Assembly (NCBI GenBank): GCA_028873525.1 | Contig: JAGWIM010000001.1 | Span: 2,068 to 66,067, forward strand | Direction of reading: 5' to 3' | DNA from: Pseudomonadota bacterium | GTDB taxonomy: Bacteria; Pseudomonadota; Alphaproteobacteria; Rickettsiales; SXRF01 | Length of the DNA stretch: 64,000 nucleotides | Shown: piece after piece, positions 5,489 through 62,836 of the stretch | Position numbering within the stretch: the first letter of the stretch is position 1 | How the letters are laid out: the number at the start of each line of letters is the position of its first letter | Position numbers and translations under genes: made by a program | The notes under the pieces: model-generated | The model's input: the letters and a program-made list of their open reading frames with translations, nothing else | Databases searched by the model: none | Told to the model about the DNA's origin: nothing

Positions 5489-5983
5489 ATATACCGATAA
5501 TGTGCGTTCAGGCAATGCTTGTTGCAAAATGTATATCGTGCAACGTTCGCCATGTATCAAAGCTGGAAACCATCTCAAGCCATTAACAAGGCTATATCGA
5601 CGGAACTTACTTATTCATCACTGCCGGTAATATTGATAAGGTAGACTGTTATTATTCAATCATTATCCTGTACCGCCACTGAGGCCGGCGCAACAAAAAT
5701 GCCTCGAGTCCATACCCATGCCGTGAGCAATGATATAATCTTCCGTGGGGTTAAGAGAGAAAAACCGCTTGATTTCCTGTTATTTACGGGTAAAAATGCG
5801 CGCCTATTTCACTTATAGCACGGCATCCGGCAGCGCGGAGGCTGGAGAATTGCCGTTGTGGCGCAACTGTTTAACCCGAAACGCCGCTGACGTTTCATAA
5901 CGAGTAAGCGGCGGTCAGCGGCCAGCGGTCAGGTAATAAACTGGTCGCTGCCAACTGGCCGCCGGCGACTAAAGAAAGCATTT

Positions 5984-7714
5984 ATGGCTCAGGCAGCACA
6001 GGCAATGAATATGGAAGTGGAAGATTTTGGCGCGTTATTCGAGGAATCCGTCAAAACATCGGGCAAGAACGAAGGTTCGGTCATCACGGGCACGGTGATT
6101 TCCGTGGAAAAGGATACCGTCATCATTGATGTCGGCCTGAAATCGGAAGGCCGCGTTCCTCTGCGCGAATTCCAGGTCGGCAATACCACACCGGAACTGC
6201 GCGCCGGCGATGAAGTCGAAGTGTTCCTGGAGCGCATCGAAAACAAGCATGGCGAAGCGGTCTTAAGCCGCGAAAAAGCGCTGCGCGAGGAAGCCTGGAC
6301 AAAGCTGGAAAAAGCCTGCGCCGACGCCACCCGCGTCGAAGGCGTGATTTTTGGCCGCGTCAAGGGCGGCTTTACCGTGGATATTCAGGGCGCCGTGGCG
6401 TTCCTGCCCGGCTCACAGGTGGACATCCGCCCGATCCGCGATGTCGGCCCGCTGATGCACATCCCGCAGCCGTTCCAGATTCTGAAGATGGACCGGAAGC
6501 GCGGCAATATTGTCGTCTCGCGCCGCGCCGTGCTGGAAGAATCGCGCAGCGAACAGCGCGAGCAACTGCTGGGCAAGATAGCCGAGGGGCAGATACTGGA
6601 CGGCATGGTCAAGAATATCACCGATTACGGCGCGTTCATCGATATGGGCGGCATCGACGGGCTGCTGCACGTCACCGATATTTCCTGGCGGCGCATCGCC
6701 CATCCTTCCGAAGTGCTGCATGTCGGCCAGACCGTGCGCGTGATGGTCACCAAGTTCGACCCGGCCACCAAGCGCGTCAGCCTCGGCATCAAGCAGCTCG
6801 AGGAAAACCCGTGGCAGGGCGCCGATGTCAAATACCCGAATGGCGCCAGGCTGCGCGGCAAAATCACCAATATCACCGATTACGGCGCGTTCGTCGAACT
6901 GGAGCCTGGCATCGAAGGGCTGGTGCACGTATCGGAAATCTCGTGGGTCAAGAAGAGCGCACACCCGTCGAAGCTGGTGTCGGTCAGCCAGGAAGTCAAT
7001 GTCGTGGTACTCGACATTGATGCGTCCAAGCACCGCATTTCCCTGGGCATGAAACAGTGCGAGGACAACCCCTGGGCGGCATACGCCGGCAAAGTCCATG
7101 CCGGCGACACCATTGAAGGCGAAATCCGCAACATCACCGATTTCGGCCTGTTCATCGGGCTGGATGGGGATATTGACGGCCTCATCCACCATTCCGATTT
7201 GAGCTGGAACGAACCTGGCGACGTTGCCATCAAGAATTACAAGAAGGGCGACCGCGTCAAGGCGAAAATACTGGCCATTGACGTGGACAAAGAGCGCGTG
7301 TCTCTCGGCGTCAAGCAGTTGGAGAACGACCCGTTCGAGGCCGAATTCGGCGAAATCCAGAAGGGGGCGACCCTCACCTGCACCGTCACCGAAGTGCAGG
7401 GCGACGGTATCAGCGTTAAGGTCAGCGAGCATATTCAGAGCTTTATCAAGAAGTCCGACCTGGCGCGCGACCGGCAGGACCAGCGCCCCGACCGCTTCGC
7501 CGTCGGCGACCGCGTGGACGTGAAAGTCACCGCGGTGGACAAGACGACGCGCAAGGTCGGCGTTTCCATCAAGGCGCTGGAGGCCGACGAGCACAAGAAA
7601 GCCATCGCCGAATACGGCTCAACCGACAGCGGCGCTTCGCTTGGAGACATCCTGGGCGCGGCGCTGGATGAAGCAAAAACAGAAAAAACGACGAAGAAGA
7701 CGAAAAAGAGCTAG
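5984..7714 (+). CDS. rpsA: 30S ribosomal protein S1
   Basis: 576-aa ORF with six S1 repeats (recurrent ITDYGAFV/DGLLHVSEISW blocks). Ends in TAG at 7712-7714. Confidence 0.95.
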   Translation: MAQAAQAMNMEVEDFGALFEESVKTSGKNEGSVITGTVISVEKDTVIIDVGLKSEGRVPLREFQVGNTTPELRAGDEVEVFLERIENKHGEAVLSREKALREEAWTKLEKACADATRVEGVIFGRVKGGFTVDIQGAVAFLPGSQVDIRPIRDVGPLMHIPQPFQILKMDRKRGNIVVSRRAVLEESRSEQREQLLGKIAEGQILDGMVKNITDYGAFIDMGGIDGLLHVTDISWRRIAHPSEVLHVGQTVRVMVTKFDPATKRVSLGIKQLEENPWQGADVKYPNGARLRGKITNITDYGAFVELEPGIEGLVHVSEISWVKKSAHPSKLVSVSQEVNVVVLDIDASKHRISLGMKQCEDNPWAAYAGKVHAGDTIEGEIRNITDFGLFIGLDGDIDGLIHHSDLSWNEPGDVAIKNYKKGDRVKAKILAIDVDKERVSLGVKQLENDPFEAEFGEIQKGATLTCTVTEVQGDGISVKVSEHIQSFIKKSDLARDRQDQRPDRFAVGDRVDVKVTAVDKTTRKVGVSIKALEADEHKKAIAEYGSTDSGASLGDILGAALDEAKTEKTTKKTKKS

Positions 7715-7721
7715 AGTCGTA

Positions 7722-7964
7722 ATGGAAATAAAGATTGATGTGGATTCCATCCGTGCGTTCGGCTCGGTGGCGCGCGGCGACGCGGGACCGGACAGCGACG
7801 TGGATTTACTGGTGCGCACGCTGCCGGGTTGCGGATTATTCAGAATAGGCGGATTCTATGTGGGATTGGAAGATTTATTGCGCCATAAGGTAGACATCGT
7901 CACGGAAGACAGCATCAGCCCCTATCTGGAATCATCTATTCTTGCTTCCGCCACGCCACTATGA
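7722..7964 (+). CDS. MntA-type nucleotidyltransferase antitoxin
   Basis: 80 aa from the ATG at 7722. Minimal nucleotidyltransferase motif GSVARGDAGPDSDVDLLV (GSx10DxD). Sits directly upstream of a HepT-like ORF. Confidence 0.75.
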   Translation: MEIKIDVDSIRAFGSVARGDAGPDSDVDLLVRTLPGCGLFRIGGFYVGLEDLLRHKVDIVTEDSISPYLESSILASATPL

Positions 7965-8000
7965 AACCGCACCATTCCGACCGCGCAAGGCTCCTGACAT

Positions 8001-8303
8001 ATGCGCGATGCTACCAGACTGATTTTTTCCTATCTGGAAGAAGACCCCGGCCGAGGCTCCCGCACTCGTGACGCAATCATCCGGCAACTGGAGGTTATCG
8101 GCGAAGCATGCAATCATATCGCTCCCCAAATACAAAAGCGCTATCCTCAGATACCGTGGCGTGAAACCGTCGCCATGCGCCACCATTTATCGCATGGCTA
8201 TTTCCAGGTAAAAATAAAGGACGTATGGGAGACAATGGATAATGATCTTCAGCCATTGCAGGAAGCAGTTCTTTCCATGCTGAACGATCCATCAATATTG
8301 TAA
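8001..8303 (+). CDS. HepT-like (DUF86) RNase toxin
   Basis: 100-aa ORF. Rx4HxY motif present as RHHLSHGY. Paired with the upstream MNT gene. Short N-terminus for the family. Confidence 0.75.
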   Translation: MRDATRLIFSYLEEDPGRGSRTRDAIIRQLEVIGEACNHIAPQIQKRYPQIPWRETVAMRHHLSHGYFQVKIKDVWETMDNDLQPLQEAVLSMLNDPSIL

Positions 8304-28147: not shown

Positions 28148-28169
28148 TGAATTCCATATGAATTCCAAG
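28148..28169 (+). promoter_or_regulatory. 11-bp-phased direct repeat TGAATTCCATA / TGAATTCCAAG
   Basis: Two tandem 11-nt units about 100 nt upstream of the 28265 ORF. Related to TGACAATTCCA/TGACAATTCCG at 60961-60982. Confidence 0.3.
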
Positions 28170-29254: not shown

Positions 29255-29511
29255 CCGCCGTTTCCGGCATACCTCTGAAATAAAGCCGGCGGCGGGCTGC
29301 CGCACGTCGCAGCGTGAAAAAATAAGGACGGACAGGATGTTCGTTGGCAGGGAGGTGGGCGTGGCAAGGTAATGGCGTTCTTATTTTCTCATTGTACATC
29401 AAAGTATTGTTATTTCGTCATCAAACTTTCACACTACTGTTCCCTTTTTCATGCTAGAAATAAGGATGGGATACCGGGTTTTGCAGCCATCACCGGGATA
29501 TGAGATATTAA

Positions 29512-35598: not shown

Positions 35599-35675
35599 TG
35601 GCGCACCCGGAGCGACTCGAACGCCCGACCCTCAGATTCGTAGTCTGATGCTCTATCCAACTGAGCTACGGGTGC
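35599..35675 (-). tRNA. tRNA-Arg (anticodon ACG)
   Basis: The reverse complement folds as a cloverleaf: acceptor GCACCCG/CGGGTGC, anticodon stem TCAGA/TCTGA with loop CTACGAA, T-arm GTTCGAGTC, encoded CCA. 77 nt. Confidence 0.9.
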
Positions 35676-41402: not shown

Positions 41403-41849
41403 TTACTCGCCGCGTGAAACAATATCGGGTCCGCCGGATTCAAGCGCCGCAATGAACGCGCCCCGAACGCGGTAGAAAAAACGTTTCGGCAATCGCCCAT
41501 AGACAATAGTTTCCGCATCGCCTCCTGCCGCCATGCGCAAATCCGGCCCCGGCCAGGTAAAGCGATTGGCTTCCGTCAGCATAACCCATGAGCGCATATC
41601 ATCAAGACCAAGCCGGCGTTTCATATCGGCGGGAATTTCCATCGCCGATTCAGCCTGCGAAAGCGAAGGCGGCGTATGCGTAATCGGCAGTACGGTGACA
41701 ATGTCTTTTCCTTCTTCATTTTTGACCAACAGTACAATGGCGCACGGGCGATCCTTCACGCCCTCTTCCTGCCCGCGCTCATGCTCGGCATTCCACAAGT
41801 AGAAATAGCGGATGACGTACGCTTCTTGCGGTTGCGGGAACAAAATCAC
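41403..41849 (-). CDS. putative toxin partner of the Phd/YefM antitoxin (MazF/PemK-fold-like)
   Basis: 148 aa. 4-nt overlap with the upstream antitoxin ORF. YFYLWNAEHERGQEEGVKDRPCAIVLLV resembles the MazF-type ...RPAVVL strand. Family assignment is uncertain. Confidence 0.5.
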   Translation of the reverse strand: MILFPQPQEAYVIRYFYLWNAEHERGQEEGVKDRPCAIVLLVKNEEGKDIVTVLPITHTPPSLSQAESAMEIPADMKRRLGLDDMRSWVMLTEANRFTWPGPDLRMAAGGDAETIVYGRLPKRFFYRVRGAFIAALESGGPDIVSRGE

Positions 41850-42103
41850 TCACCCCATTCATGGTCGAGACCTTCCGCCTCGAGAGCCGCTTGCGCTTTC
41901 TTCAAATCCTCAATATCCTTCTCGGTGAAATCGGCCGGCGTCATCACCTGCCGGTCGCGGCGCTTAAGGCGCTGGTATTCTTCCGTTGACATAAACACAA
42001 TGCGCCCGCGGCCGTTTTTGGTCATCGTCACCGGCTCGACCAGCGCCTTATCCGTATAAAGACCAAAATTACGCTGAAATTCTACTGAAGATACGGTTTC
42101 CAT
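41846..42103 (-). CDS. Phd/YefM-family antitoxin
   Basis: 85 aa. The N-terminus METVSSVEFQRNFGLYTDKALVEPVTMTKNGRGRIVFMSTEEYQRL matches the Phd/YefM pattern. RBS GGAGG. Confidence 0.7.
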   Translation of the reverse strand: METVSSVEFQRNFGLYTDKALVEPVTMTKNGRGRIVFMSTEEYQRLKRRDRQVMTPADFTEKDIEDLKKAQAALEAEGLDHEWGE

Positions 42104-42117
42104 AATTCCTCCATAAG

Positions 42118-42149
42118 CTATGTATTATACATAGTATACGTATACTATG
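42118..42149. promoter_or_regulatory. overlapping palindromes: candidate operator/promoter of the Phd-toxin operon
   Basis: Perfect 20-bp palindrome CATAGTATACGTATACTATG (42130-42149) overlapping the 17-bp palindrome CTATGTATTATACATAG (42118-42134). They lie 15-46 nt upstream of the antitoxin ATG and overlap the tatC stop. Confidence 0.5.
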
Positions 42150-42906
42150 TAGGTATGTCAACAGGCTTTCCCATATTCCTGCACACGAAAATCGATATTT
42201 CATACAACAGGTACAGCGGAACCGAAAGCGCAATCTGGCTGAAAATGTCCGGCGGGGTAATGAAAGCGGCTATGGTAACGATAATCACCACCGCATAGCG
42301 CCGCCCGCGCTTCAGCGTCTCCAGCGACAGAATACCCGCCCGCACCAGCAGCACCAGCACCACCGGCAATTGGAACGACAGGCCGAAAGCGATAATCAGG
42401 TGCATGGCGATGTTGAGGTAATCGCCGACGCGCGCCTCCAGTTGAATGGGCAGCGCGCCGAGGATGGCCGGACTTTCAAAACTCAGGAAAAACCGCCACG
42501 CCGCCGGAAAAATCACGTAATAAGCAAACGCCGCGCCGCCGATAAACAACAGCGGCGAAGCAACAAGATAGGGGATGAACGCCCGCCGCTCGCGCTGGTA
42601 AAGCCCAGGCGCAAGGAATCGGTAAAGCTGCATTGCGATCACCGGAAACGACAGCATAAATCCGCCAAACACCGCCAGTTTCAGGTAAGCGAGAAAAGGC
42701 TCGGTCAGGCTGGTATAAATCAGCCGCCGGTGCTCAGGATTAGGGAACGCTTCGGCCAGCGGCCGCACGAGAATGGCGTAAATATCGCCCGCCACCAGGT
42801 AACATAAAACCGTCGCTGCGAGAAACGCCAGCAGGCAGACAACCAGGCGGCGGCGCAGCTCAATCAGGTGGTCGATGATGGGTTGCCGGGGGAGGTCGAT
42901 GGTCAT
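42145..42906 (-). CDS. tatC: twin-arginine translocase subunit TatC
   Basis: 253 aa with six TM helices. HLIELRRRL N-terminus and a TPPD block. Confidence 0.9.
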   Translation of the reverse strand: MTIDLPRQPIIDHLIELRRRLVVCLLAFLAATVLCYLVAGDIYAILVRPLAEAFPNPEHRRLIYTSLTEPFLAYLKLAVFGGFMLSFPVIAMQLYRFLAPGLYQRERRAFIPYLVASPLLFIGGAAFAYYVIFPAAWRFFLSFESPAILGALPIQLEARVGDYLNIAMHLIIAFGLSFQLPVVLVLLVRAGILSLETLKRGRRYAVVIIVTIAAFITPPDIFSQIALSVPLYLLYEISIFVCRNMGKPVDIPT

Positions 42907-42944: not shown

Positions 42945-42964
42945 AATTGTCATTAAATTGTCAT
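42945..42964. promoter_or_regulatory. tandem direct repeat AATTGTCAT-TA-AATTGTCAT (11-bp phase)
   Basis: Lies in the divergent region between the tatC start (42906) and the 43044 ORF. The reverse complement, TGACAATT x2, matches the core of 60961-60982. Confidence 0.35.
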
Positions 42965-43043
42965 ACGCGAATCTCTAATATTCGTGCTATCGTATAAGAC
43001 AGTGTTATTATTTAATTTCTAGCCCAAATAAGGGGTGCTTGTC

Positions 43044-43511
43044 ATGCCATTCAGAAACGGCAAAATTGCAGGTGTGCTCAATAACAGTGATTCAAGCACC
43101 AATGAGATGAGTTATGTCGATATGCACGACCTGCATCCTGATAACGTGCAGGCTGCGCAGGTGCATGGCGCAGTAGATGGTGCTATGTCAGGCGCAACGT
43201 TAGCAGCCATACCAGCAGCACTGATGTCGTTTGGAACCGAAACTGTAATTGAGGAAGGAGCCGAGCATCTTCACTTCAACCTCAAAAATGGGAAGATTGG
43301 TGCTGCAATTATTGCATTAGGTGCTGTTGTAATGGGCGCAGTTCGTTCGTTTACTGCCAAGAAAGAAGCTGAAACCCATAACGCATGGTCTGAGCGTGTC
43401 TTATCGCGCATGGAACAGCGGGAAGCAGTTGAGGCTGAGGCTAAACATGCCGCCGCTGTTATAACTCAGCGTGAACAAGCTGCACAGGGTACGCAGCAAG
43501 CAGGTAAATAA
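43044..43511 (+). CDS. hypothetical Gly/Ala-zipper membrane protein
   Basis: 155 aa from the ATG at 43044 (AAGGGG 8 nt upstream); the tracked GTG is at 43035. AT-richer than its flanks. Has GAVDGAMSGATLAAIPAALMSFG and IGAAIIALGAVVMGAV segments and an Ala/Glu/Gln-rich tail. Confidence 0.4.
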   Translation: MPFRNGKIAGVLNNSDSSTNEMSYVDMHDLHPDNVQAAQVHGAVDGAMSGATLAAIPAALMSFGTETVIEEGAEHLHFNLKNGKIGAAIIALGAVVMGAVRSFTAKKEAETHNAWSERVLSRMEQREAVEAEAKHAAAVITQREQAAQGTQQAGK

Positions 43512-43535: not shown

Positions 43536-44268
43536 GGGTCAAGACTACTTGAGCGGGTTATTACGGAGTAATGATAACAGTATTTTATAGATGTTGTCAT
43601 TACGATGATTATAGCGGAACTCGGTTTCTTTAAGATGCAGGTAGAAGGTTGATTTCGCCATACCCCTGAACTTTGCAAGTCGTACTTTTGCGATACCCCA
43701 GAAGCCTTCAATGCCATTGACATGAGTGTGCCCTCTGGCGAATTCATCCTTGCCGTGATCGACCCGGAAGTGGCCGTAGCCAATGTCTACCAAGCCGTTA
43801 TATCCTCTCCAGCCGTCCGAGTTGACAACGGACTCCGCCGCCACCTTTCCTCGGATAATGGCTTGCAGCGTTGATTTGGAGCAATCCGGCACGATCTCGG
43901 TGTACACATGGCCGTTGCGTTCGTAGATGCCAAACACCGTGGTTTTGCCGTAAGCGCCTCGGCCACGCTTGCCCTTCACCCGGCGAGCACCGAACCATGA
44001 TTCGTCCACTTCCACCGTGCCGCTGAATGGAAATTGTTCCTCGCAATAGGCGGCAATGTGCTCACGAATGCCTTGCAGATACCGATTCACCGTGTTGCGA
44101 TTCAGCCCCGTCAGATAGGCAATTTGCGTTGCCATCAGGTCAGCCGAAAACAGCTTAACCAACATCCGAAATTGCTTCTCTGAAATGCGGGAACGAAATT
44201 TATACTTGCTCTTCTGCGCCATCACTAGCTTGTAGCATACTTCCTATATGCTCAAGTAGTCTTGACCC
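43536..44268 (-). mobile_element. IS1595-family insertion sequence (733 bp), apparently intact
   Basis: Perfect 19-bp terminal inverted repeats GGGTCAAGACTACTTGAGC (43536-43554 and 44250-44268). 8-bp direct target duplication ACATTTAA (43528-43535 and 44269-44276). Single transposase ORF. Confidence 0.85.
43545..44225 (-). CDS. IS1595-family (ISXO2-like) DDE transposase
   Basis: 226 aa. VEVDESWFGARRVKGKRGRGAYGKTTVFGIYERNGHVYTEIVPDCS...DGWRGYNGL...HVNGIEGFWGIAKVRLAKFRG is characteristic. An ATG is at 44222. Confidence 0.85.
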   Translation of the reverse strand: MMAQKSKYKFRSRISEKQFRMLVKLFSADLMATQIAYLTGLNRNTVNRYLQGIREHIAAYCEEQFPFSGTVEVDESWFGARRVKGKRGRGAYGKTTVFGIYERNGHVYTEIVPDCSKSTLQAIIRGKVAAESVVNSDGWRGYNGLVDIGYGHFRVDHGKDEFARGHTHVNGIEGFWGIAKVRLAKFRGMAKSTFYLHLKETEFRYNHRNDNIYKILLSLLRNNPLK

Positions 44269-44558: not shown

Positions 44559-44569
44559 AGCACTCCCTT

Positions 44570-44705
44570 GTCATCCCCGCGCAGGCGGGGATCCAGTAGC
44601 GCCGCGCGTGTCCGCCGAAGCCTTGGCGAAGGCGGATCTGCGGCGCGGAAGAATCTATACCACGCCTACGGCGCTTTGCTGGATTCCCGCCTTCGCGGGA
44701 ATGAC
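44570..44705. repeat. 136-bp MITE-like element with hairpin termini
   Basis: gtcatccccgcgcaggcggggatccag ... ctggattcccgccttcgcgggaatgac. Fills the tatA-tatB spacer. Same ends as 50685-50789. Confidence 0.65.
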
Positions 44706-44709
44706 AATA

Positions 44710-44880
44710 TTATGGTTTATCCTTCGGCTCGGCGTTGCCTTCTTCCTCCCCCTTAAGCCCCTCGCGCAGGTTACGGATGCCCTTGCCGACGTCGCCCATC
44801 ACCTTGGGCAGCCTTCCGGCGCCGAAAATAACCAGCACGACGATTAAAATAAGCAGCAGATGCAAGAAACTCAGTCCCAT
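44710..44880 (-). CDS. tatA: twin-arginine translocase subunit TatA
   Basis: Hand translation gives MGLSFLHLLLILIVVLVIFGAGRLPKVMGDVGKGIRNLREGLKGEEEGNAEPKDKP (56 aa). Below the ORF-track cut-off. Confidence 0.8.
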   Translation of the reverse strand: MGLSFLHLLLILIVVLVIFGAGRLPKVMGDVGKGIRNLREGLKGEEEGNAEPKDKP

Positions 44881-44904
44881 TGTTTTTTCCTTTCCACAAA
44901 AATC

Positions 44905-44997
44905 GGATGACCGGATAACCGGATTTGATGATACAGTAATATCATAATAAAAAATAAAAAATCATTTTTATCCGGTCGTCCGGTTATCCGGTCATCC
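44905..44997 (-). terminator. 19-bp perfect inverted repeat with a 55-nt AT-rich loop: candidate terminator of the M50 protease gene, upstream of tatA
   Basis: GGATGACCGGATAACCGGA (44905-44923) pairs with TCCGGTTATCCGGTCATCC (44979-44997). On the minus-strand transcript the second arm is followed by GATTTTTG. The right arm overlaps the protease stop codon. Confidence 0.45.
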
Positions 44998-50593: not shown

Positions 50594-50684
50594 AAGGCGT
50601 TAAGGCTTAGCGAAAGACAGGCGCGGTGGCAAGGATATTTCCCCGCCGTCCGCCTCCACTCTTTGTCATCCCCGTCTTTAATCC

Positions 50685-50789
50685 GTCATTCCCGCGCAGG
50701 CGGGAATCCAGCAAAGCGCCATGGGCGCGGTATAAACCCTTCTGCGCCGCAGACGCGGCGCACTGGATTCCCGCTTTCGCGGGGATGAC
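50685..50789. repeat. 105-bp MITE-like element (same family as 44570-44705)
   Basis: gtcattcccgcgcaggcgggaatccag ... cactggattcccgctttcgcggggatgac. Partial copies flank it at 50664-50684 and 50800-50808. Confidence 0.65.
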
Positions 50790-51245
50790 AAAATAAATGG
50801 GAATGACAAAATTCCCCCTTCCCGACCACATTTTCCTATGAGACTCTTGGCCTACACCCGGGTTACTGCGCGGCGGAATTTACGGGGCGTTGCCCCGCAA
50901 AATCACCACTATGATTTTGCGCCAATGCCATGAGAAGGTGTGCCAAGGCCCTCGCTCACCGTATCGTCCGCGTTTTTATTCCAAAACGCTTGGCCGCAAG
51001 GGGCGCTGAAGATCCCCCGACCCTCACCCCCGTCGCAAATCCAGGGGTTTCTGCCGTGAGCCGGCTCACACTACGTAATTTCCCTCTCCCATCGGGAGAG
51101 GGTGTCCACCGAAGCCCGAAAGGCGAAGGCGGGCGGGCGAGGGCATCGCCGGTGGCGCACCCCCCCTCGCCCTTACCCCTCTCCCGGCGGGAGAGAGGAA
51201 CAAACCCGCTTGTTTTTCCGGCGGTTTTAACCCATATTATAAGAC

Positions 51246-51620
51246 ATGCAGCCGCATGAACATCTGGTCGCGCCCGCGCCGCCGCCCGCTTTCACGCTGA
51301 CGGACAGCGCGAGTGCGCGCATCAACGCGCTTAAAGCATCGGAACGCAAGCCGAATCTTCGTTTCCGCATTACGGTCAAAGGTGGCGGCTGTTCCGGCTT
51401 CCAGTATGATTTCGCGCTCGATGACGGCGCGCCCGCGGCCGAAGACATGATTTTCGCGCATAATGGCGCCGAAGTCATCGTGGATAATGTTTCGCTCGGC
51501 ATCATCGGCGGCAGCGTGCTGGATTATACGGAAGATTTATCCAGCGCCGGCTTCTCCATCAAAAATCCCCACGCCACCGCCAAATGCGGCTGCGGCAATA
51601 GCTTCGCGGTGACGCTTTGA
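51246..51620 (+). CDS. erpA: iron-sulfur cluster insertion protein ErpA (HesB/IscA family)
   Basis: 124 aa with GGGCSGFQY and a C-terminal CGCGNSF. Confidence 0.8.
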   Translation: MQPHEHLVAPAPPPAFTLTDSASARINALKASERKPNLRFRITVKGGGCSGFQYDFALDDGAPAAEDMIFAHNGAEVIVDNVSLGIIGGSVLDYTEDLSSAGFSIKNPHATAKCGCGNSFAVTL

Positions 51621-54505
51621 TGCGCTTCCTCTTGCTAAAGAATCTGGCAATAAAGCAATATTATTTTCTGACCACAGGGCTGTTTATCCTTGCGATTACA
51701 CTGAAAGCTGCTCTGATCAATCTTCGATCATCGGATTTCCAGCATTTTCTAATATATTGGGTGCATTTTCCCCAGACTCACGGCCTGTTACATGCCTACG
51801 CACAGGGATTTTCCAATTATGCCCCGCTCTATACTTATATGCTCGGCATTGCCGGTTGGCTTTTTCCCTCTCTACGAACACTCTATCTGGTGAAAGGCGT
51901 GACGTTCGCCGGCGAAGCCTTCGCCGGCCTGTATCTCTACCGGCTTATGGACTGGTACCGGCAACGTGAAGGATACACGCCGGTTACGCCACTTATCGGC
52001 GCCATATTGCTCCTGCTGTCTCCTTCCGTATTGGTCAACGGCGCGGACGTGGGGCAATGCGATATATGGTGGGTAGCGTTCCTGCTGGCAGCATTGTATT
52101 ACATTATAAACGATCGACCCCTGCCCACTCTGATATATTGTGGGTTAGCGCTCGCCTTCAAGCCGCAATCGCTGTTTCTCTCGCCGCTGTTTCTGGTGCT
52201 GGTCATCAAAGGCCGCGTTCCATGGAAACTGGCATGGGTGCCGCTGGCCGTCTATGTCGCCACCTGTATTCCCGCATGGCTGGAAGGCAGGTCGCTATAT
52301 GATCTATTAATGATTTATCCCAGTCAGGCTATGGAAGGCGATCTCAACAGCAACGCCCCAAATATCTATCTGCTATCGCTCCAAATGTCCTCGGTATTAA
52401 AAGCACAACTTGGCATATTGGTGGGCCTGGCGCTGGCACTAGCTTTCATATTTGTCACCTGCCTGCGGTGGAAGCTCCCGTTCACGCTGACGCAATACAC
52501 GCTGCTGGCTACTCTGAGCGCCGCCATGCTGCCCTTCGTGCTGCCGCACATGCATGACCGTTATTTCTTCGCCGCCGATATCCTGTCACTGCTGCTGGCC
52601 TGCCTTAATCCACGCTGGTGCATACTTACCCTACTGTTCCAAAGCGCATCCATATTGGCGCCACCCGATTATCAAACGCATCTTTCAATTTTTCATAACC
52701 ATAATACTGCCTTACGGCTCGGCCTGGGTATGAACGCGGCAGCGCTTGCCATATTGTTTTATCTATGCATAAAACACGTGTGGACAAATCAACACCGTTG
52801 TCGTTCTGACATATGGATTCGCGTGCCGCTCGCCTCTTCCATAACCCTTACGCTTGCCAGCTGGATATGCGTGCTGCTGCTGTGGTCTTTTACGCCCGTT
52901 ACGCTTGCCAACATTACCACCACGCATGCGGGGAGCGGCGGCATCGCCAGCGTTTCATTTTCTTATTTCCCCGGTCAGTCGGGCGTTCTCCGCATCGTGC
53001 CTTCGGCTGATGTCCGCCCCAGCCAGTGGCCGGGCGTGCCGGATATCCGCAAGACCGCCTGCCTCAAGGAAATCACCATCAACGGCAATCCTGTCAGCCA
53101 TGGCTTTTCAGGCTGCTACGGCGACGCGGTGACCATGGATTTCTCTCCCTACCTGCATTACGGCGCCAATCAGCTGCAGGTGACATTCAGCGCCACGGGA
53201 AGCAACCCTGATGTCGCCGTCTATAGCATGCGCTCAACGCCGGAGATGCTGGCCATTCTCTATTATCTCTGCTTCGGCCTGCTGATGCACCGGATATTGC
53301 GTGCTGACCGGAAGGCGTTGCGGAACAGCGTCCATCCCATCCAGATAACCCTGCTGGCTGTCGGTCTGGCCGTCGCGTGGTGGGCGCGATCTCCCTTGAT
53401 GGACGTCACCTCCAACGACTACCGCGCCTTCATCGATCGCTGGTTATTCGTCATACGCTATTATCCCGGCATCCATTACGCAGCCAGCGGCTCGAATTAC
53501 ACCCCCTTTTACATTTATATGATGGGGGTATTCGACCGCCTGTTTCCTACCCTCGCTATGCTCCACGCCGTCAAATGGCTGAGCTTCCTCGGCGATGTGT
53601 TTGCGGGATTCTGGCTGTGGCGCATTATCGCACTCTGCAACCATCATCCACTCCTGCCGCCCGCCGCCGTGACGCTGCTGTGGCTGGCGCCATCGGTGGT
53701 GCTGAACAGCACCGCCATGGCACAGTGCGACAGCTGGTGGGTGGGCATGCTGCTGGCCGCCATGTATTATGTGGGTAAACAACGGCCTTCCATGGCATTA
53801 TTTTGGGGCGGCATGGCCTTTGCCTTCAAGCTGCAGGCCGTCTTCCTTGCGCCGCTGCTGCTGATACTGGTGCTGGAAGGCATCGTGCCATGGAAAAAGC
53901 TATGGATACTACCCGCCGCCTATCTCTTAATCTGCCTGCCCGCGTGGATGGAGGGTGTGCCGATGTCTAAATTACTTCTGGTGTACTGGCGACAGTTTCA
54001 TACTTACGGTAATATCACCGAAACAGGCAATATCTATGTCTGGCTGCCGCTGCATTATTCCTATGAAACCATGCGCGATGCGGGACTCATTTTTTCCGCT
54101 GCTGCCGCCGCCGGGCTGGTGACCTGGACGCACCGGCGCTGGCCACGGCAGCCGACGCCCATCCATTATCTGCTGCTGGCGGCGCTTTTTTCCACACTGA
54201 TGCCGTTCATCCTGCCGAAGATGATCAACCGCTATTTCCTCGCCGGCGACGTGTTGACGCTGGTCATCGCCACCTTAAGGCCGTGCTGGTTTCTGCCGGC
54301 GCTGCTCATGCAATGCGCTTCTATCCTCACCTTCCAGAGCTGGCAGCTTGATGTAGCCCAGCGCCTGACCGGCCTTGATGACTGGAGCCGTTTCCGCATC
54401 GCCGCCGTGCTGTATGCAGCGGCGATTGCATTATTGCTATGGCTGTGCCAGCGTTATGTGTGGAAACTCGAACCCACCGGCGGAAATGGCACATGCCGAG
54501 AATAA
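51620..54505 (+). CDS. tandem-duplicated GT-C-fold membrane glycosyltransferase (two modules joined by a soluble linker domain)
   Basis: About 960 aa. Module 1 and module 2 share SNY(A/T)P(L/F)Y, QCD(I/S)WWV, FK(P/L)Q..FL.PL and PAW(L/M)EG blocks. A non-membrane, beta-rich segment is encoded around 52908-53240. The ATG at 51620 overlaps the erpA TGA. Confidence 0.6.
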   Translation: MRFLLLKNLAIKQYYFLTTGLFILAITLKAALINLRSSDFQHFLIYWVHFPQTHGLLHAYAQGFSNYAPLYTYMLGIAGWLFPSLRTLYLVKGVTFAGEAFAGLYLYRLMDWYRQREGYTPVTPLIGAILLLLSPSVLVNGADVGQCDIWWVAFLLAALYYIINDRPLPTLIYCGLALAFKPQSLFLSPLFLVLVIKGRVPWKLAWVPLAVYVATCIPAWLEGRSLYDLLMIYPSQAMEGDLNSNAPNIYLLSLQMSSVLKAQLGILVGLALALAFIFVTCLRWKLPFTLTQYTLLATLSAAMLPFVLPHMHDRYFFAADILSLLLACLNPRWCILTLLFQSASILAPPDYQTHLSIFHNHNTALRLGLGMNAAALAILFYLCIKHVWTNQHRCRSDIWIRVPLASSITLTLASWICVLLLWSFTPVTLANITTTHAGSGGIASVSFSYFPGQSGVLRIVPSADVRPSQWPGVPDIRKTACLKEITINGNPVSHGFSGCYGDAVTMDFSPYLHYGANQLQVTFSATGSNPDVAVYSMRSTPEMLAILYYLCFGLLMHRILRADRKALRNSVHPIQITLLAVGLAVAWWARSPLMDVTSNDYRAFIDRWLFVIRYYPGIHYAASGSNYTPFYIYMMGVFDRLFPTLAMLHAVKWLSFLGDVFAGFWLWRIIALCNHHPLLPPAAVTLLWLAPSVVLNSTAMAQCDSWWVGMLLAAMYYVGKQRPSMALFWGGMAFAFKLQAVFLAPLLLILVLEGIVPWKKLWILPAAYLLICLPAWMEGVPMSKLLLVYWRQFHTYGNITETGNIYVWLPLHYSYETMRDAGLIFSAAAAAGLVTWTHRRWPRQPTPIHYLLLAALFSTLMPFILPKMINRYFLAGDVLTLVIATLRPCWFLPALLMQCASILTFQSWQLDVAQRLTGLDDWSRFRIAAVLYAAAIALLLWLCQRYVWKLEPTGGNGTCRE

Positions 54506-55719
54506 AAACATTTTCCCCGTCTTTTTTCATCATTCTGGCGCTATATCTGCTGGCGGTCTGCCTAAAAATATACCTCATCGATTACAGGTCGGACGATTAC
54601 AATGGATATGTAATTTACTGGATGTCCTATATCCGCGAGCATGGCATGGCGCATGCCTATGGCACGCGTTTTTCCAATTATGCCCCTCTTTATACTTACC
54701 TGCTGGGCATCTTCAGTCTGCTCTCGCCTTATTTAAGCACGCTTTACATCGTAAAAACCGTCACGTTTGCCGGGGAAGCGGTCGCCGTTTATTACGTCTA
54801 TGAAATGGTCGCGCTGCACCAACGCCAGACGCAGGGCAGCACAGACATATCCCTGCCGCCGGGCATCGCTGCTGTATCGGTGATACTATTGCCAACCGTG
54901 CTGGCCAACGGCGCATGGTTCGGGCAGTGCGATATCTGGTACACCGTATGCCTGCTGGCGTTCGTATTTTACCTGTCATGCGGGGGAAAATACAAAGCGC
55001 TGATCGCTTACGGACTGTCTTTCTCGTTCAAACCCCAGGCGATATTCCTGACGCCGCTTTTGCTGTTCTGCCTGCTGGAGCGCAAAATCCGCTGGTGGGA
55101 GATAGCGATTATTCCCGGCGTGTACATCCTGACCTGCGTTCCCGCTTGGCTGGAAGGCCGCCCGTTCATGGAACTGCTCTTTAATTACTGGCCTCAGCTG
55201 TTCAACTGGAATATGCATCAGCAGGCGTGGACGGCCTCGTTCATGGCGGCCAATATTTTCATTTACCTGCCCGACATCAGCCGGGGCTGGGTTGCCTACG
55301 GCGGGTTGTTTCTTGCCGCTTGTGCAGGAGGGAGCATTGCCTGGGTCAGCCACCGCCGCCGGCACGATGAAAATTCCCTGCTGGCGATGATATTGCTGGC
55401 CACGCTTTTCGCCGCGCTCATGCCCTATCTGCTTCCCCGCCAGCTCGGCCGTTATTTTTTTGCCGCGGATATTTTTTCCTTCCTGCTGGCAGCCTTGAGG
55501 CCGCGCTGGTTTTTCATCGCCGCGATGTTCCAGTATGCCTCTCTGGCCGCCACGCTCTATAACGTTTCGCTTCCATGGATATGGCCGCATTATTCAGGGA
55601 TAGCCCGCCTGAAAACCGCCATGTGGATAAACGCCGCCGCGATTGCCATGCTCTCTTGGCTCTGTTACCAACATATCTGGAAGCGCAATCCATTACCGCT
55701 GGCGAACACAAGCGAATGA
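54493..55719 (+). CDS. GT-C-fold membrane glycosyltransferase (third paralogous module)
   Basis: 408 aa from the ATG at 54493, overlapping the previous ORF by 13 nt. Same motif series (SDDYNGY, FSNYAPLYTY, GQCDIWY, FSFKPQAIFLTPL, PAWLEG). Confidence 0.6.
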   Translation: MPRIKTFSPSFFIILALYLLAVCLKIYLIDYRSDDYNGYVIYWMSYIREHGMAHAYGTRFSNYAPLYTYLLGIFSLLSPYLSTLYIVKTVTFAGEAVAVYYVYEMVALHQRQTQGSTDISLPPGIAAVSVILLPTVLANGAWFGQCDIWYTVCLLAFVFYLSCGGKYKALIAYGLSFSFKPQAIFLTPLLLFCLLERKIRWWEIAIIPGVYILTCVPAWLEGRPFMELLFNYWPQLFNWNMHQQAWTASFMAANIFIYLPDISRGWVAYGGLFLAACAGGSIAWVSHRRRHDENSLLAMILLATLFAALMPYLLPRQLGRYFFAADIFSFLLAALRPRWFFIAAMFQYASLAATLYNVSLPWIWPHYSGIARLKTAMWINAAAIAMLSWLCYQHIWKRNPLPLANTSE

Positions 55720-60162: not shown

Positions 60163-60188
60163 CATTGTCACAAAAACTTAACTTGAGA
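60163..60188 (+). promoter_or_regulatory. conserved upstream block ACATTGTCACAAAAACTTAACTTGAG
   Basis: Matches 61006-61031 (CCATTGTCACAAAAGCTTCATTTGAG). Within the 24-nt core that starts at ATTGTCAC, 21/24 positions are identical. TTGAGA-N17-TATACT follows at 60183-60211. Confidence 0.4.
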
Positions 60189-60243
60189 CCGCTGTCCTGT
60201 AACCTTATACTTCAGGGAGCGTTAAAAAGCTGGAGTGGTTTTT

Positions 60244-60945
60244 ATGGGCTACCGCGAATCATATGGCGCATCGGGTTTCGGCCCTTTGGGGTGGGTTGGT
60301 TCGTTTTTTACGAACTTCTTTCCGTCCTATAGGGAAACCCCAAGGGGCCAACAAGCAACAGACCTGAACAAACGGCTTGGTGATATTGCAAACGAACCAA
60401 AGATTCTTGATGCTCAACTGAGAGCCGAACGTGCCAAACAACGTATAAGAGATAACGATGCACGCGCACGATACGCGTACCAACGACAACAGCATGGTGA
60501 TGCGGATGGCGGCGCATCATTTTCAGGGCAAGGCGAACAGTCCGGCATGGGGGTGCTCGGCACGGGAACGGTAGTCGCCGCCGCGCTGGCCGGCTTCGGC
60601 CTCGTATATAAACTGGCTTCCAGCCTGTTTGAAGGCGTCCCGCTGCTGGTCGCCTCGGCCTTCGCCGCCGTCGGTTTCGGCATACTTGGCAAAAAAACCT
60701 ATGATGCGGTTGCCGGCACGTTTCAGAACAAGGCGCCCGCGCTCGCATCGGGGGAAAATACGGAACCGGCACCATCCGTACCCGGACATGAAAAATCAGC
60801 GACGCACGGTGTCACCGCCGCTGCGATGGCAGATGTAAACCTTGCACAAAGCGGAAAATTAGCATCTCCCGCCACGCCGCCGCCCAAGAATCCTATTACC
60901 TCCTCCGTACCCCAAAAAAGCACCTCTGGCTTCCAACTTGGCTGA
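60244..60945 (+). CDS. hypothetical Gly-zipper membrane protein with a Pro-rich tail
   Basis: 233 aa from the ATG at 60244 (GGAG 8 nt upstream). Central GTGTVVAAALAGFGLVY / LLVASAFAAVGFGILG helices and a C-terminal P/S/T-rich tail. Confidence 0.45.
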   Translation: MGYRESYGASGFGPLGWVGSFFTNFFPSYRETPRGQQATDLNKRLGDIANEPKILDAQLRAERAKQRIRDNDARARYAYQRQQHGDADGGASFSGQGEQSGMGVLGTGTVVAAALAGFGLVYKLASSLFEGVPLLVASAFAAVGFGILGKKTYDAVAGTFQNKAPALASGENTEPAPSVPGHEKSATHGVTAAAMADVNLAQSGKLASPATPPPKNPITSSVPQKSTSGFQLG

Positions 60946-60960
60946 ATTTTTACGGAACTG

Positions 60961-60982
60961 TGACAATTCCATGACAATTCCG
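60961..60982 (+). promoter_or_regulatory. 11-bp-phased direct repeat TGACAATTCCA / TGACAATTCCG
   Basis: Two tandem units 115 nt upstream of the 61097 ORF. The inverted core ATTGTCAC follows at 61008-61015. Confidence 0.4.
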
Positions 60983-61005
60983 GGGTAAAATGGCGCCGTG
61001 GCCGC

Positions 61006-61031
61006 CCATTGTCACAAAAGCTTCATTTGAG
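61006..61031 (+). promoter_or_regulatory. conserved upstream block CCATTGTCACAAAAGCTTCATTTGAG
   Basis: Second copy of the block at 60163-60188, 66 nt upstream of the 61097 ATG. Confidence 0.4.
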
Positions 61032-61096
61032 GGAAACGGTTAAGTATGGGAGAATGAAGACAGGTTAAATAACACGGTGAATGAAAGAGTACCATT

Positions 61097-62836
61097 ATGC
61101 CCGCTGAAAAAAAATCCGCGCCTGCCGCCATCACTCCCGCTGATGACAATGACCAGGACGGCAAAAGCAATCCCGTCAGTAATAATATGGTCTCCGGAAT
61201 GCTGGCGCTGGCGGCGGGCGCGATTGCGTTCTTCGCCGGCGGCGAGGTCATCGGCCTGATCGGCGCGCTGATCATCGCCGCGATTGCATTCTTCATCGGC
61301 AGCGCGTTGGGGCTGGACAAGGGCGGCTTCTTCGCCAGCAAACCTGTCGCGCCCGCCGCGCCGCCCACACCCGATACACCAGCCGCTGCTCCTGCTGCTG
61401 CTACTGAGGCTACGACTGCCGCTGCCGATAAAGCCGCTGCCGATAAAGCCGCTGCCGACAAGGCCGCTGCCGCTAAGGCCGCTGCCGACAAGGCCGCTGC
61501 CGACAAGGCCGCTGCCGACAAGGCCGCTGCCGACAAGGCCGCTGCCGATAAAGCCGCTGCCGCTAAGGCCGCTGCCGCTAAGGCCGCTGCCGACAAGGCC
61601 GCTGCCGACAAGGCCGCTGCCGATAAAGCCGCTGCCGCTAAGGCCGCTGCCGATAAAGCCGCTGCCGACAAGGCCGCTGCCGATTATGATGATGCCAGGA
61701 ATATTAAGCTGACCAATCCTGAGGGCAGCGTGCGGCGGCTGGTGACGTTTAATGTGCCGGATAACAATGGTAACGTTATCGCAACCATAACCGGACAGGT
61801 ATCAGGTGTGTCCGGCGGTCTTCAGTTCACACCCCAAACAGTACAGACTCCACTAACTGCGAGTACTGACAAGCCCGTCGTGGAAGCAATCGGGTATAAA
61901 CATGCGATAAAGATAGGGGAAGATAATATTCTGCATATTGAAAATGCGAATATCAAAGAACAGTTTGCAGGTATGATCAGGGTAATAAACAATACTGCTG
62001 TCAAGCAACGTGAGCATGAACAGAAAGTCTCTAATGATGAACGTGAAGCTCAAGAACGCCAGGATCGTGCTGACTATATCGCCATTCTAAAACAACAACC
62101 AGAGTGGACAAATATTGTAACTACACCCATACCGAAAACCACCAGTACCACCGTAGATTTTGATGTCAAATTCGTCTTCAAGGATACGATAAAAGAATAT
62201 CACGTCAGTGCTACGCACGAAGGAAAAAGCCATCAATTAAAAATCAATAACGTTTCACACCACGAACGTAACATTATTACGGATCCCCTTTACATCAATT
62301 GTCCCAACGGACTATCAGATGTAAACCCACAGAATACCAAGCTTACCAATATGTTCCAGAAATTGGCAGCGCAGGAAGAAGAAAATGCGAAAACTGCCGC
62401 TGCTGCGAAAACTGCTGCTCCTGCTGCTGCCGCTAAGGCCGCCGCCGCCGCTGCCCCGGCTAAGCCACCTGAAACCGCAGTGAACGATGGTGACAAGCAA
62501 CTTTCTGATGAATTCTTGAATAGTTTCAAAACTAGGCTATACAAACCTCGTTTTGCTTCAGAAAATACTGCCCCGGCTACGGGATCTACCGAGAAAAAGA
62601 ATAACGGCGCTTCGACACCGAGTCCTGACTTGAATATGATAATGACGGCTCTCAGTAGGCCCGTCACTATCATGCCTCTCCCGCAGTTAATACAGGGAGT
62701 TGGTGCTGGAGTGACAAGCGCAGTTCAACTGGCCTGGGAGCAAGTCAGCGCGGGCAGCAGTCAAACCCCGGCAGGAAGCCCAACAGTTAAAAACCCTCCG
62801 GGCAATAAGAAATCCCCTCCGCCACATACACCTTGA
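61097..62836 (+). CDS. hypothetical membrane-anchored repeat protein ((A)3-4(D/A)K repeats)
   Basis: 579 aa: N-terminal Gly-zipper TM region, about 17 AAADK/AAAAK pentapeptides, an AT-rich central region with no recognisable motif, a second Ala-rich stretch and a Pro-rich C-terminus. Confidence 0.55.
   Translation: MPAEKKSAPAAITPADDNDQDGKSNPVSNNMVSGMLALAAGAIAFFAGGEVIGLIGALIIAAIAFFIGSALGLDKGGFFASKPVAPAAPPTPDTPAAAPAAATEATTAAADKAAADKAAADKAAAAKAAADKAAADKAAADKAAADKAAADKAAAAKAAAAKAAADKAAADKAAADKAAAAKAAADKAAADKAAADYDDARNIKLTNPEGSVRRLVTFNVPDNNGNVIATITGQVSGVSGGLQFTPQTVQTPLTASTDKPVVEAIGYKHAIKIGEDNILHIENANIKEQFAGMIRVINNTAVKQREHEQKVSNDEREAQERQDRADYIAILKQQPEWTNIVTTPIPKTTSTTVDFDVKFVFKDTIKEYHVSATHEGKSHQLKINNVSHHERNIITDPLYINCPNGLSDVNPQNTKLTNMFQKLAAQEEENAKTAAAAKTAAPAAAAKAAAAAAPAKPPETAVNDGDKQLSDEFLNSFKTRLYKPRFASENTAPATGSTEKKNNGASTPSPDLNMIMTALSRPVTIMPLPQLIQGVGAGVTSAVQLAWEQVSAGSSQTPAGSPTVKNPPGNKKSPPPHTP
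61418..61684 (+). repeat. 15-bp tandem repeat GCCGCTGCCGA(Y)AA(R), about 17.8 copies, coding
   Basis: Direct reading. Units differ only at GAT/GAC/GCT and AAA/AAG positions. The mirror ORF on the minus strand (61012-61671) is an artefact of the repeat. Confidence 0.9.

Follow-up and report, generated by a model that had tools for sequence, protein, structure and literature searches.

Do the short direct repeats that lie upstream of several orphan membrane-protein genes in this 64-kb stretch of DNA (the window) form the operators of a single regulator and, if so, of which one? The DNA comes from around the replication origin of an alphaproteobacterium, with dnaA, dnaN, recF and gyrB at 13.4-20.4 kb, divK-pleD at 57.7-59.5 kb, and groEL and tatC also present; short contigs of the metagenome-assembled genome (MAG) GCA_028873305.1 are 100% identical to it. 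A first-pass annotation had read the repeats as the signature of a new common regulator of unlinked envelope genes, and all five of the strings that it quoted were found at its coordinates. Our analysis separated the elements into two kinds, perfect dimers with the sequence of a classical Pho box and a promoter module shared by two neighboring genes. Both would be operators of a winged-helix regulator of the OmpR/PhoB family, most likely phosphorylated PhoB, and we give PhoB-type control about an even chance of being the correct reading. The dimers and the genes that they adjoin are the following.

42145-42906, minus strand: tatC; site D lies between it and the 43044 open reading frame (ORF)
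42947-42964, plus strand: site D, a perfect Pho-type dimer, TTGTCAT-TAAA-TTGTCAT (14/14), facing the 43044 ORF
42976-42981, plus strand: candidate -10 hexamer TAATAT, 11 nt past site D, read from the sequence
43044-43511, plus strand: orphan ORF of 155 aa with Gly/Ala-rich hydrophobic segments, between tatB and tatC, GC content at third codon positions (GC3) 0.41
60244-60945, plus strand: gene 1, 233 aa, with a charged N-terminal part, a Gly-zipper transmembrane (TM) hairpin and a Pro-rich tail
60960-60977, minus strand: site A, a perfect Pho-type dimer, TTGTCAT-GGAA-TTGTCAC (14/14)
61097-62836, plus strand: gene 2, 579 aa, with a bilobed hydrophobic hairpin at its N terminus, an (AAADK)n repeat and Pro-rich ends

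The unit common to sites A and D is TTGTCAY, repeated in 11-bp phase. Read as a repeat, site A (60961-60982) is TGACAATTCCA followed by TGACAATTCCG, with an identity of 10/11, and its plus strand reads GTGACAATTCCATGACAA, i.e., TGAC-N7-TGAC; the string at site D (42945-42964) is AATTGTCATTAAATTGTCAT. The claim that the same core recurs in the same phase at these two places was borne out: perfect TTGTCAY-N4-TTGTCAY dimers occur twice in the window and in none of 300 dinucleotide shuffles, and dimers matching at 13 or more of the 14 positions average 0.04 per shuffle. As to whether the core stands above background frequency within the window, the answer was mixed. The 8-mer TGACAATT by itself is not overrepresented (four copies against 1.9 expected; 14 of 100 shuffles reach four), and the positional part of the expectation held, in that all four copies pair up into two 11-bp-phased pairs.

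By sequence, these dimers are Pho boxes. The Escherichia coli Pho box consists of two 7-nt CTGTCAT repeats separated by a 4-nt spacer, giving 11-nt units (PMC4415409), and the alphaproteobacterial PhoB motif obtained by chromatin immunoprecipitation sequencing (ChIP-seq) is YGTCAYR twice, with an A-rich 4-nt spacer (bioRxiv 10.1101/741363). Sites A and D share with PhoB promoters the two 7-nt TGTCA-type repeats, the A/T-rich 4-nt spacer and the 11-bp period, and fit TTGTCAY-N4-TTGTCAY at 14/14 positions with spacers GGAA and TAAA, respectively. The earlier suggestion that one-helical-turn repeats of this kind are bound by OmpR/PhoB-type winged-helix regulators is supported. In their placement, the two sites differ. 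Site D faces the 43044 ORF and has a -10 hexamer 11 nt downstream without a -35, which is the layout of a canonical PhoB promoter, like classical examples in both orientation and -10 spacing; PhoB would presumably bind there. Site A is inverted relative to gene 2.

To see what such dimers accompany elsewhere, we scanned one genome per species with AATTGTCAYNNAATTGTCAY, the pattern common to sites A and D, and retrieved at least 119 loci (numbered with an L prefix, as are all loci retrieved for comparison). Among the 119 matches listed, the first gene in the direction from TGTCA to the gene encodes PstS in six and a PhoB-type regulator in eight, and in the opposite orientation a response regulator was found in one. 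NCBIfam equivalog scores exceeded the cutoff for PstS in L039, L116 and L006 and for PhoB in L066 and L108, in agreement with Pfam. Many of these loci have three or four units in phase. In the pstS and phoB promoters that carry the box, the -10 hexamer lies 10 nt downstream (TATCAT in L039, TATAGT in L066), and the same spacing is seen at loci without identified downstream Pho genes (TATAAT in L054, CATAAT in L074). A new common regulator, as first proposed, is therefore not needed, since the dimers have the form of the classical Pho box and the same pattern precedes pstS and phoB elsewhere (PMC4415409; bioRxiv 10.1101/741363). What is new is the set of target genes and the promoter layout; the kind of operator and the class of regulator are already known.

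The second kind of element lies directly upstream of genes 1 and 2. The first-pass annotation had described a near-identical core at 60163-60188 and 61006-61031, and the two blocks are indeed identical at 22 of 26 positions; within them the 20-nt core TGTMACAAAARCTTMAYTTG occurs twice in the window (at most 3 mismatches) against 0.01 expected. Each block can be divided into a Pho-like box and a predicted promoter.

60165-60182, plus strand: box C, TTGTCAC-AAAA-ACTTAAC, the promoter-proximal box of gene 1
60183-60211, plus strand: predicted sigma-70 promoter of gene 1, with -35 TTGAGA, a 17-nt spacer and -10 TATACT (60206-60211)
61009-61026, plus strand: box B, TTGTCAC-AAAA-GCTTCAT, with a perfect first Pho half-site and a weak second one
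61027-61055, plus strand: predicted sigma-70 promoter of gene 2, with -35 TTGAGG (61027-61032), a 17-nt spacer and -10 GAGAAT (61050-61055)

The module thus runs, in order, TGT(C/A)AC-AAAA-nCTT(A/C)AY box, TTG (-35), 17 nt and -10, and the gene 1 promoter has 10 of 12 consensus matches. The -10 starts 23 nt downstream of both boxes, each of which retains a TTG -35. Boxes B and C match the Pho consensus at only 10 to 11 of 14 positions, the fit being confined to the first half-site and the AAAA spacer, and a single shared half-site is all that joins these blocks to the dimers at A and D; in relatives, that half-site reads TGTAAC as often as TGTCAC. Blocks B and C are a promoter module separate from the perfect dimers and homologous to each other.

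We then asked how far the module extends beyond the window. The 233-aa gene 1 protein, whose sole annotation is as a hypothetical protein in a "Pseudomonadota bacterium" MAG, returned only itself in a sequence homologue search, and so relatives were located through homologues of the neighboring prmA-like gene and then by synteny. The order divK-pleD, prmA-like gene, gene 1, gene 2, acs was found in five loci (L126, L124, L129, L132 and L130). Positional orthologues of gene 1 are present in L124, L126, L129 and L132, aligning at 17 to 26% identity, and those of gene 2 in L124, L126, L129, L130 and L132. Although the gene 1 and gene 2 proteins of these relatives are only 17 to 26% identical to those of the window, they retain the Gly-zipper TM hairpin and Pro-rich tails. 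The block is kept before positional orthologues in the five syntenic relatives, with box C before the gene 1 orthologues of L124, L126, L129 and L132 and box B before the gene 2 orthologues of L124, L129 and L132. Upstream of these orthologues, the sole conserved stretch is (T)GT(C/A)AC-AAAA-nn-TT(A/C)A(C/T)-TTG, and the layout TTGnnn-N17-nAnnnT is found in all 10 aligned orthologous promoters. Because nothing else upstream is conserved, the near-identity of B and C indicates homologous, functionally constrained promoters. This runs counter to the idea that unlinked genes had been recruited to a motif, since the two blocks belong to adjacent genes whose positions are conserved. By contrast, the broader observation that the sites precede orphan membrane genes with Gly-zipper or Pro-rich regions stands, and the association is conserved in relatives. 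The proposed sharing of elements among several genes holds for 43044, 60244 and 61097 and for no others in the window.

A metagenome scan with the 20-mer yielded 115 distinct block instances, 66 of which have a -10 at 16 to 18 nt. Where a -10 and a downstream ORF were both present, 27 of 49 instances encode a Gly-zipper-like hydrophobic segment. The proteins encoded downstream of the metagenome blocks mostly lack a Pfam family, and no pst, pho or flagellar genes were seen downstream of the block instances. The block and the dimer are associated. Over 830 kb of block-carrying metagenome loci, Pho-type dimers matching at 12 or more of 14 positions occur at 0.775 per kb in the 160 bp upstream of the block against 0.119 per kb, a 6.5-fold enrichment. 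Ten of 14 such dimers are reverse oriented, with YAAA spacers, and their starts cluster at -49 to -51, -39 to -40 and -30, i.e., in steps of about one helical turn. Reverse dimers lie upstream of the gene 2 block, by 30, 40 or 50 bp, in L129, L141, L148, L157, L173, L188, L191, L213 and L245, and where a locus has two blocks, it is always the second, that of gene 2, that follows the reverse dimer; site A of the window starts at -50. L129 carries a reverse trimer, TTGTCAT-CTGG-CTGTTAT-AAAA-CTGTAAT. Elsewhere, the first half of the block is extended into a forward array, as in L175 (TTGTCAC-AATG-GTGTCAC-AAAA-GCTTAAC) and likewise in L130. In about 1 Mb of the relatives' loci, 7 of 13 dimers matching at 13 or more of 14 positions adjoin block genes; the genes beside the other strong dimers are housekeeping or unannotated, with no further Pho genes among them.

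Site A lies 32 bp upstream of box B, with its promoter-proximal end 72 nt from the -10 of gene 2. We considered a leftward PhoB promoter firing from site A, antisense to gene 1, and rejected it, as no -10 is conserved at 10 or 23 nt in nine homologous instances. Because the dimer has no conserved -10 in its own direction, it most likely acts on the gene 2 promoter. Site D, for its part, belongs with the 43044 gene. In the relative L175, tatB and tatC are contiguous and neither the orphan gene nor site D is present, so the site goes with the inserted gene. An IS1595-family insertion (43536-44268; transposase 43545-44225, minus strand) sits beside site D, between tatB and the 43044 ORF, and together with the orphan gene splits the tatB-tatC pair. 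Its inverted repeats of about 19 bp (GGGTCAAGACTACTTGAGC), at 43536-43554 and 44250-44268, exclude site D, so the site is not part of the element.

Taken together, the repeat sequences point to phosphorylated PhoB as the most likely binder, since the motifs are Pho boxes by sequence, and if so, the orphan membrane-protein genes would respond to phosphate starvation. The 60244 and 61097 genes each have a conserved module of their own, an 18-bp box (TGTCAC-AAAA plus a weaker nCTTMAY half-site) abutting the TTG of the -35, and in the gene 2 promoter a strong reverse dimer, site A, lies about 50 bp farther upstream than the box. The regulator would bind the high-affinity distal dimer together with the weaker proximal box and recruit RNA polymerase from just upstream of the -35. 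Our data show the sequences with their statistics, conservation and layout; which protein binds, whether it activates or represses and what signal it answers are inferences.

This arrangement departs from classical PhoB promoters: in place of phosphate-acquisition genes, the targets are orphan membrane proteins specific to the clade; at 61097 the strong dimer is inverted and distal; and the proximal boxes have a gap of 23 nt instead of 10 nt to the -10 and occur together with a -35. The departures in layout have a precedent in PhoP, a member of the same protein family, which uses a 23-nt box together with reverse boxes. In Salmonella, a PhoP box is most effective when placed 23 nt upstream of the -10, boxes in reverse orientation activate at distances of 27, 37 or 48 nt, and horizontally acquired genes typically have such layouts (PMC3335776). 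The promoters described here resemble Salmonella architectures III to V in having a direct-repeat box upstream of the -35, 23 nt from the -10, plus helically spaced reverse boxes, and the low GC3 of their targets parallels the horizontally acquired genes that these layouts mark in Salmonella (PMC3335776). In the window, GC3 is 0.41-0.53 for ORFs 43044, 60244 and 61097 as opposed to 0.7-0.8 for housekeeping genes. The promoters here differ from those of PhoP in their half-site (TGTCAY here, TGTTTA there), in regulator and signal, and in that the reverse boxes lie farther upstream, at 52 to 72 nt from the -10.

L156, the pho locus of an unrelated GC-rich organism (5900-8035), encodes a PhoB-like regulator, a PhoR-like kinase, a porin, PstS and PstC; the exact 20-nt block TGTAACAAAAACTTCACTTG precedes its Porin_5 gene, and its pstS is preceded by CTGTAAC-GCGA-CTGTAAC-AAAA. 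Since a pho locus carries such boxes, TGTAAC-AAAA is a usable Pho half-site. L225, a block-carrying metagenome locus whose membership in the clade is not shown, encodes a PhoB equivalog (341 bits against a cutoff of 296) with no clear box in the region upstream of phoB. No pst or pho genes were found in the clade loci, the only loci that carry them being L156 and L189, both outside the clade, and neither phoB nor phoR is among the genes of the 64-kb window.

Several further observations weigh against PhoB. The Pho-box consensus used for the match comes from other organisms rather than from the pstS, phoU and phoB promoters of the same genome, and inside the clade no pst or pho gene was seen with the block in front of it. 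Site A points away from gene 2, and no conserved -10 follows it in its own direction. Compared with a classical Pho box, boxes B and C are displaced upstream by 13 bp, the -35 being kept, their second half-site is poor, and the first half in relatives is often TGTAAC. In E. coli, many PhoB sites are transcriptionally inert (PMC10294691). Finally, the GTCAC/GTGAC core is nearly palindromic, so that the opposite strand can be read as the CenR motif TGA-N8-TGA, which carries little information, and the CenR layout (co-directional, upstream of the -35, envelope targets) accommodates A, B and C without any anomaly of orientation (PMC9275681).

The main rival is a different OmpR-family envelope regulator such as CenR, a possible though doubtful one; site D would then serve tatC on the minus strand. 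Rhodobacter sphaeroides CenR sites have the form T(G/C)AC-N7-(G)TGA, 28 of 31 lie directly upstream of the -35 and run in the direction of transcription, and 29 of 31 target units code for proteins of the envelope or periplasm (PMC9275681). On the gene strand, site A becomes TGAC-N7-TGAC and the blocks TCAC-N7-T(A/C)AY. All would be co-directional with transcription, with the proximal box at the -35; boxes B and C abut it, and site A is centered about 60 bp upstream of it. The TGA-N8-TGA motif fits the plus strand of site A (TGACAATTCCATGAC) and the minus strand of site D (TGACAATTTAATGAC), one published CenR site, TCACAAATGCATTAC, and the block 15-mer TCACAAAAGCTTAAC agree at 12 of 15 positions, 10 of the 14 dimers before gene 2 blocks run in the TGAC-to-gene direction, and the targets here are membrane proteins. 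As in the CenR operator, 11-bp direct repeats at the -35 (here boxes B and C) are co-directional with envelope-protein genes downstream (PMC9275681). The fit is not specific, however, because the CenR motif carries so little information that any reversed Pho box fits it. It is much less specific than the extended units seen here (YYGTCAY with a YAAA spacer), which match the Pho box and not the listed CenR sites, and the blocks fit only in part (TCA-N8-T(A/C)A), their second half (TAA or TCA) being a poor TGA. The placement of site D hinges on a putative tatC promoter. The site is 41 bp upstream of the tatC start codon, which has no Shine-Dalgarno sequence, but L175 has the tatB-tatC pair without the site, so D came with the orphan gene. 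No cenR gene turned up in the window or the fetched loci, where a systematic search was not possible.

A related alternative, which we regard as unlikely, is that the block and the phased reverse dimer form the operator of a dedicated, uncharacterised OmpR-family regulator (CenR-like or a PhoB paralogue) of the rapidly diversifying Gly-zipper/Pro-rich membrane proteins beside divK-pleD in this uncultured alphaproteobacterial lineage. Such an arrangement would recall PmrA boxes, which precede Dot/Icm effector genes in Legionella and Coxiella and have the half-site cTTAATatT. Both place an OmpR-family one-turn direct repeat before many fast-evolving orphan genes; they differ in half-site, and no secretion system or host-associated lifestyle is in evidence here.

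It is also conceivable, but quite improbable, that the blocks are a conserved strong constitutive promoter, consisting of an A-tract UP-like element and a -35 and passed down with the gene family, and that the dimers are nonfunctional or incidental. The AAAA of the block lies at about -46 to -43, the position occupied by a proximal UP subsite, and common descent of adjacent promoters can explain the near-identity of B and C; many PhoB sites are, moreover, inert or species specific (PMC10294691). However, TGTMAC and TTMAY are conserved beyond the A-tract even though flanks and coding sequences have diverged to 17 to 26% identity, the dimers recur at fixed, helically spaced offsets across many independent loci, and in some relatives the box continues as a forward array in the same register.

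A reading of the blocks as CtrA boxes (TTAA-N7-TTAAC), which would connect the genes with the divK-pleD cell-cycle module, is very improbable: the genes do adjoin divK-pleD in all syntenic loci, and the block takes the form GTAA-N7-TTAAC in several relatives, where it overlaps the -35 region, but the first base is invariably G rather than T in 10 orthologous promoters, the window blocks (GTCA-N7-TTAAC and GTCA-N7-TTCAT) have two and four mismatches, sites A and D lack TTAA, and CtrA-like boxes with at most one mismatch number three in the window against five expected, none of them perfect. Two further candidates were rejected: a ChvI/BvrR operator, since neither TTGC-N3-GCAA (Caulobacter) nor GCC-N8-GCC (Sinorhizobium meliloti) is present in sites A to D (PMC9731502), and an extracytoplasmic-function (ECF) sigma -35 reading of TGTAAC/CTTAAC, since the aligned promoters have no conserved CGT-type -10 at 16 to 17 nt.

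Not all of the repeats first proposed belong with these sites. The pair at 28148-28169 (site E; TGAATTCCATA followed by TGAATTCCAAG) had been offered as a related unit upstream of a paralogue triplet. We dropped it because it lacks the GTCA core and because tandem 11-mers of at least 9/11 identity are about as numerous in the window (nine) as in shuffles (5.6 ± 2.4). Nothing else ties in the triplet, in which similarity is weak and confined to two members (21% over 104 aa). Likewise, the intergenic TTGTCAY sequences do not all form one regulon, as 5 of 12 belong to an element resembling a miniature inverted-repeat transposable element (MITE) with GC hairpins. This MITE-like element of about 145 bp is present in two copies (44565-44710 and 50660-50812), and has GC-rich hairpins as its inverted ends (TTGTCATCCCCGCGCAGGCGGGGATCCAG ... 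CTGGATTCCCGCCTTCGCGGGAATGACAA); L225 has a hairpin like these, GCCTGCCTTCGCAGGCATGACG, upstream of its block. We also rejected the motif as a terminal repeat of an insertion sequence (IS) or MITE, since sites A to D are unlike the termini of the MITE-like element (TTGTCATCCCCGCG...) and the IS1595 repeats exclude D.

Other Pho-like dimers were noted along the way. At 29415-29432, TCGTCAT-CAAA-CTTTCAC, a 12/14 match, lies 80 nt upstream of and facing the 29512 ORF; it resembles the canonical L161 site TCGTCATCAAATTGTCAC, lacks a -10 at 10 nt, and may be a weak additional site. In the Bacteroidota loci L038, L045, L104, L013 and L022, the dimer common to sites A and D, in the form AATTGTCAY-N2-AATTGTCAY, lies upstream of genes other than pstS, which encode type IX secretion system (T9SS) cargo (Por_Secre_tail), multihaem cytochromes and a papain-family protease (Peptidase_C1, L104); no T9SS tail was detected in the L104 protein. 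This dimer may mark the PhoB regulon of Bacteroidota or that of another regulator.

As for the genes themselves, the products of 43044, 60244 and 61097 have no Pfam family, apart from a low-complexity match to HC2. The latter is spurious and arises from about 20 tandem AAADK/AAAAK pentapeptide repeats in the 579-aa protein (window positions 61390-61690), which also give rise to a long antisense ORF (61012-61671, minus strand). A type II toxin-antitoxin pair (41403-42103) lies immediately downstream of tatC and comprises a PhdYeFM antitoxin (41846-42103, minus strand) and a weak PemK-like toxin (41403-41849, minus strand). At 44900-44990, between tatA and an M50 peptidase gene, is a long palindrome of 8-bp-period units (GGATGACCGGATAACCGGAT ... 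ATCCGGTCGTCCGGTTATCCGGTCATCC); L175 has a related palindrome at 2860-2960, between tatB and tatC, with five copies of GGATGACT and GAGTCATC. Two further orphan ORFs without a Pfam family, 51617-54505 (962 aa) and 54976-55590 (204 aa), are flanked by an Fe-S assembly gene and a GT2/Exo_endo_phos pair, and the 962-aa gene is absent from the equivalent position in L126 and L129. A search of the whole window against Rfam found no known RNA families near the motif sites, the sole match above the gathering threshold being a tRNA gene (35602-35675, minus strand).

These results give otherwise unannotated genes a testable regulatory handle. They show that orthology below the reach of sequence searches (17 to 26% identity) can be recognised when synteny is combined with a conserved promoter module of 20 nt, of which there are more than 60 promoter-like metagenome instances. 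The composite layout, in which a direct box 23 nt from the -10 is joined by a distal reverse box in helical register, has so far been documented for Salmonella PhoP and would here be extended to boxes of the PhoB type. If a dedicated regulator were the true binder, the genes would instead form an envelope or host-interaction regulon analogous to the effector sets controlled by PmrA. Under PhoB-type control, the prediction is that the three orphan membrane proteins answer a two-component signal, most likely phosphate limitation.

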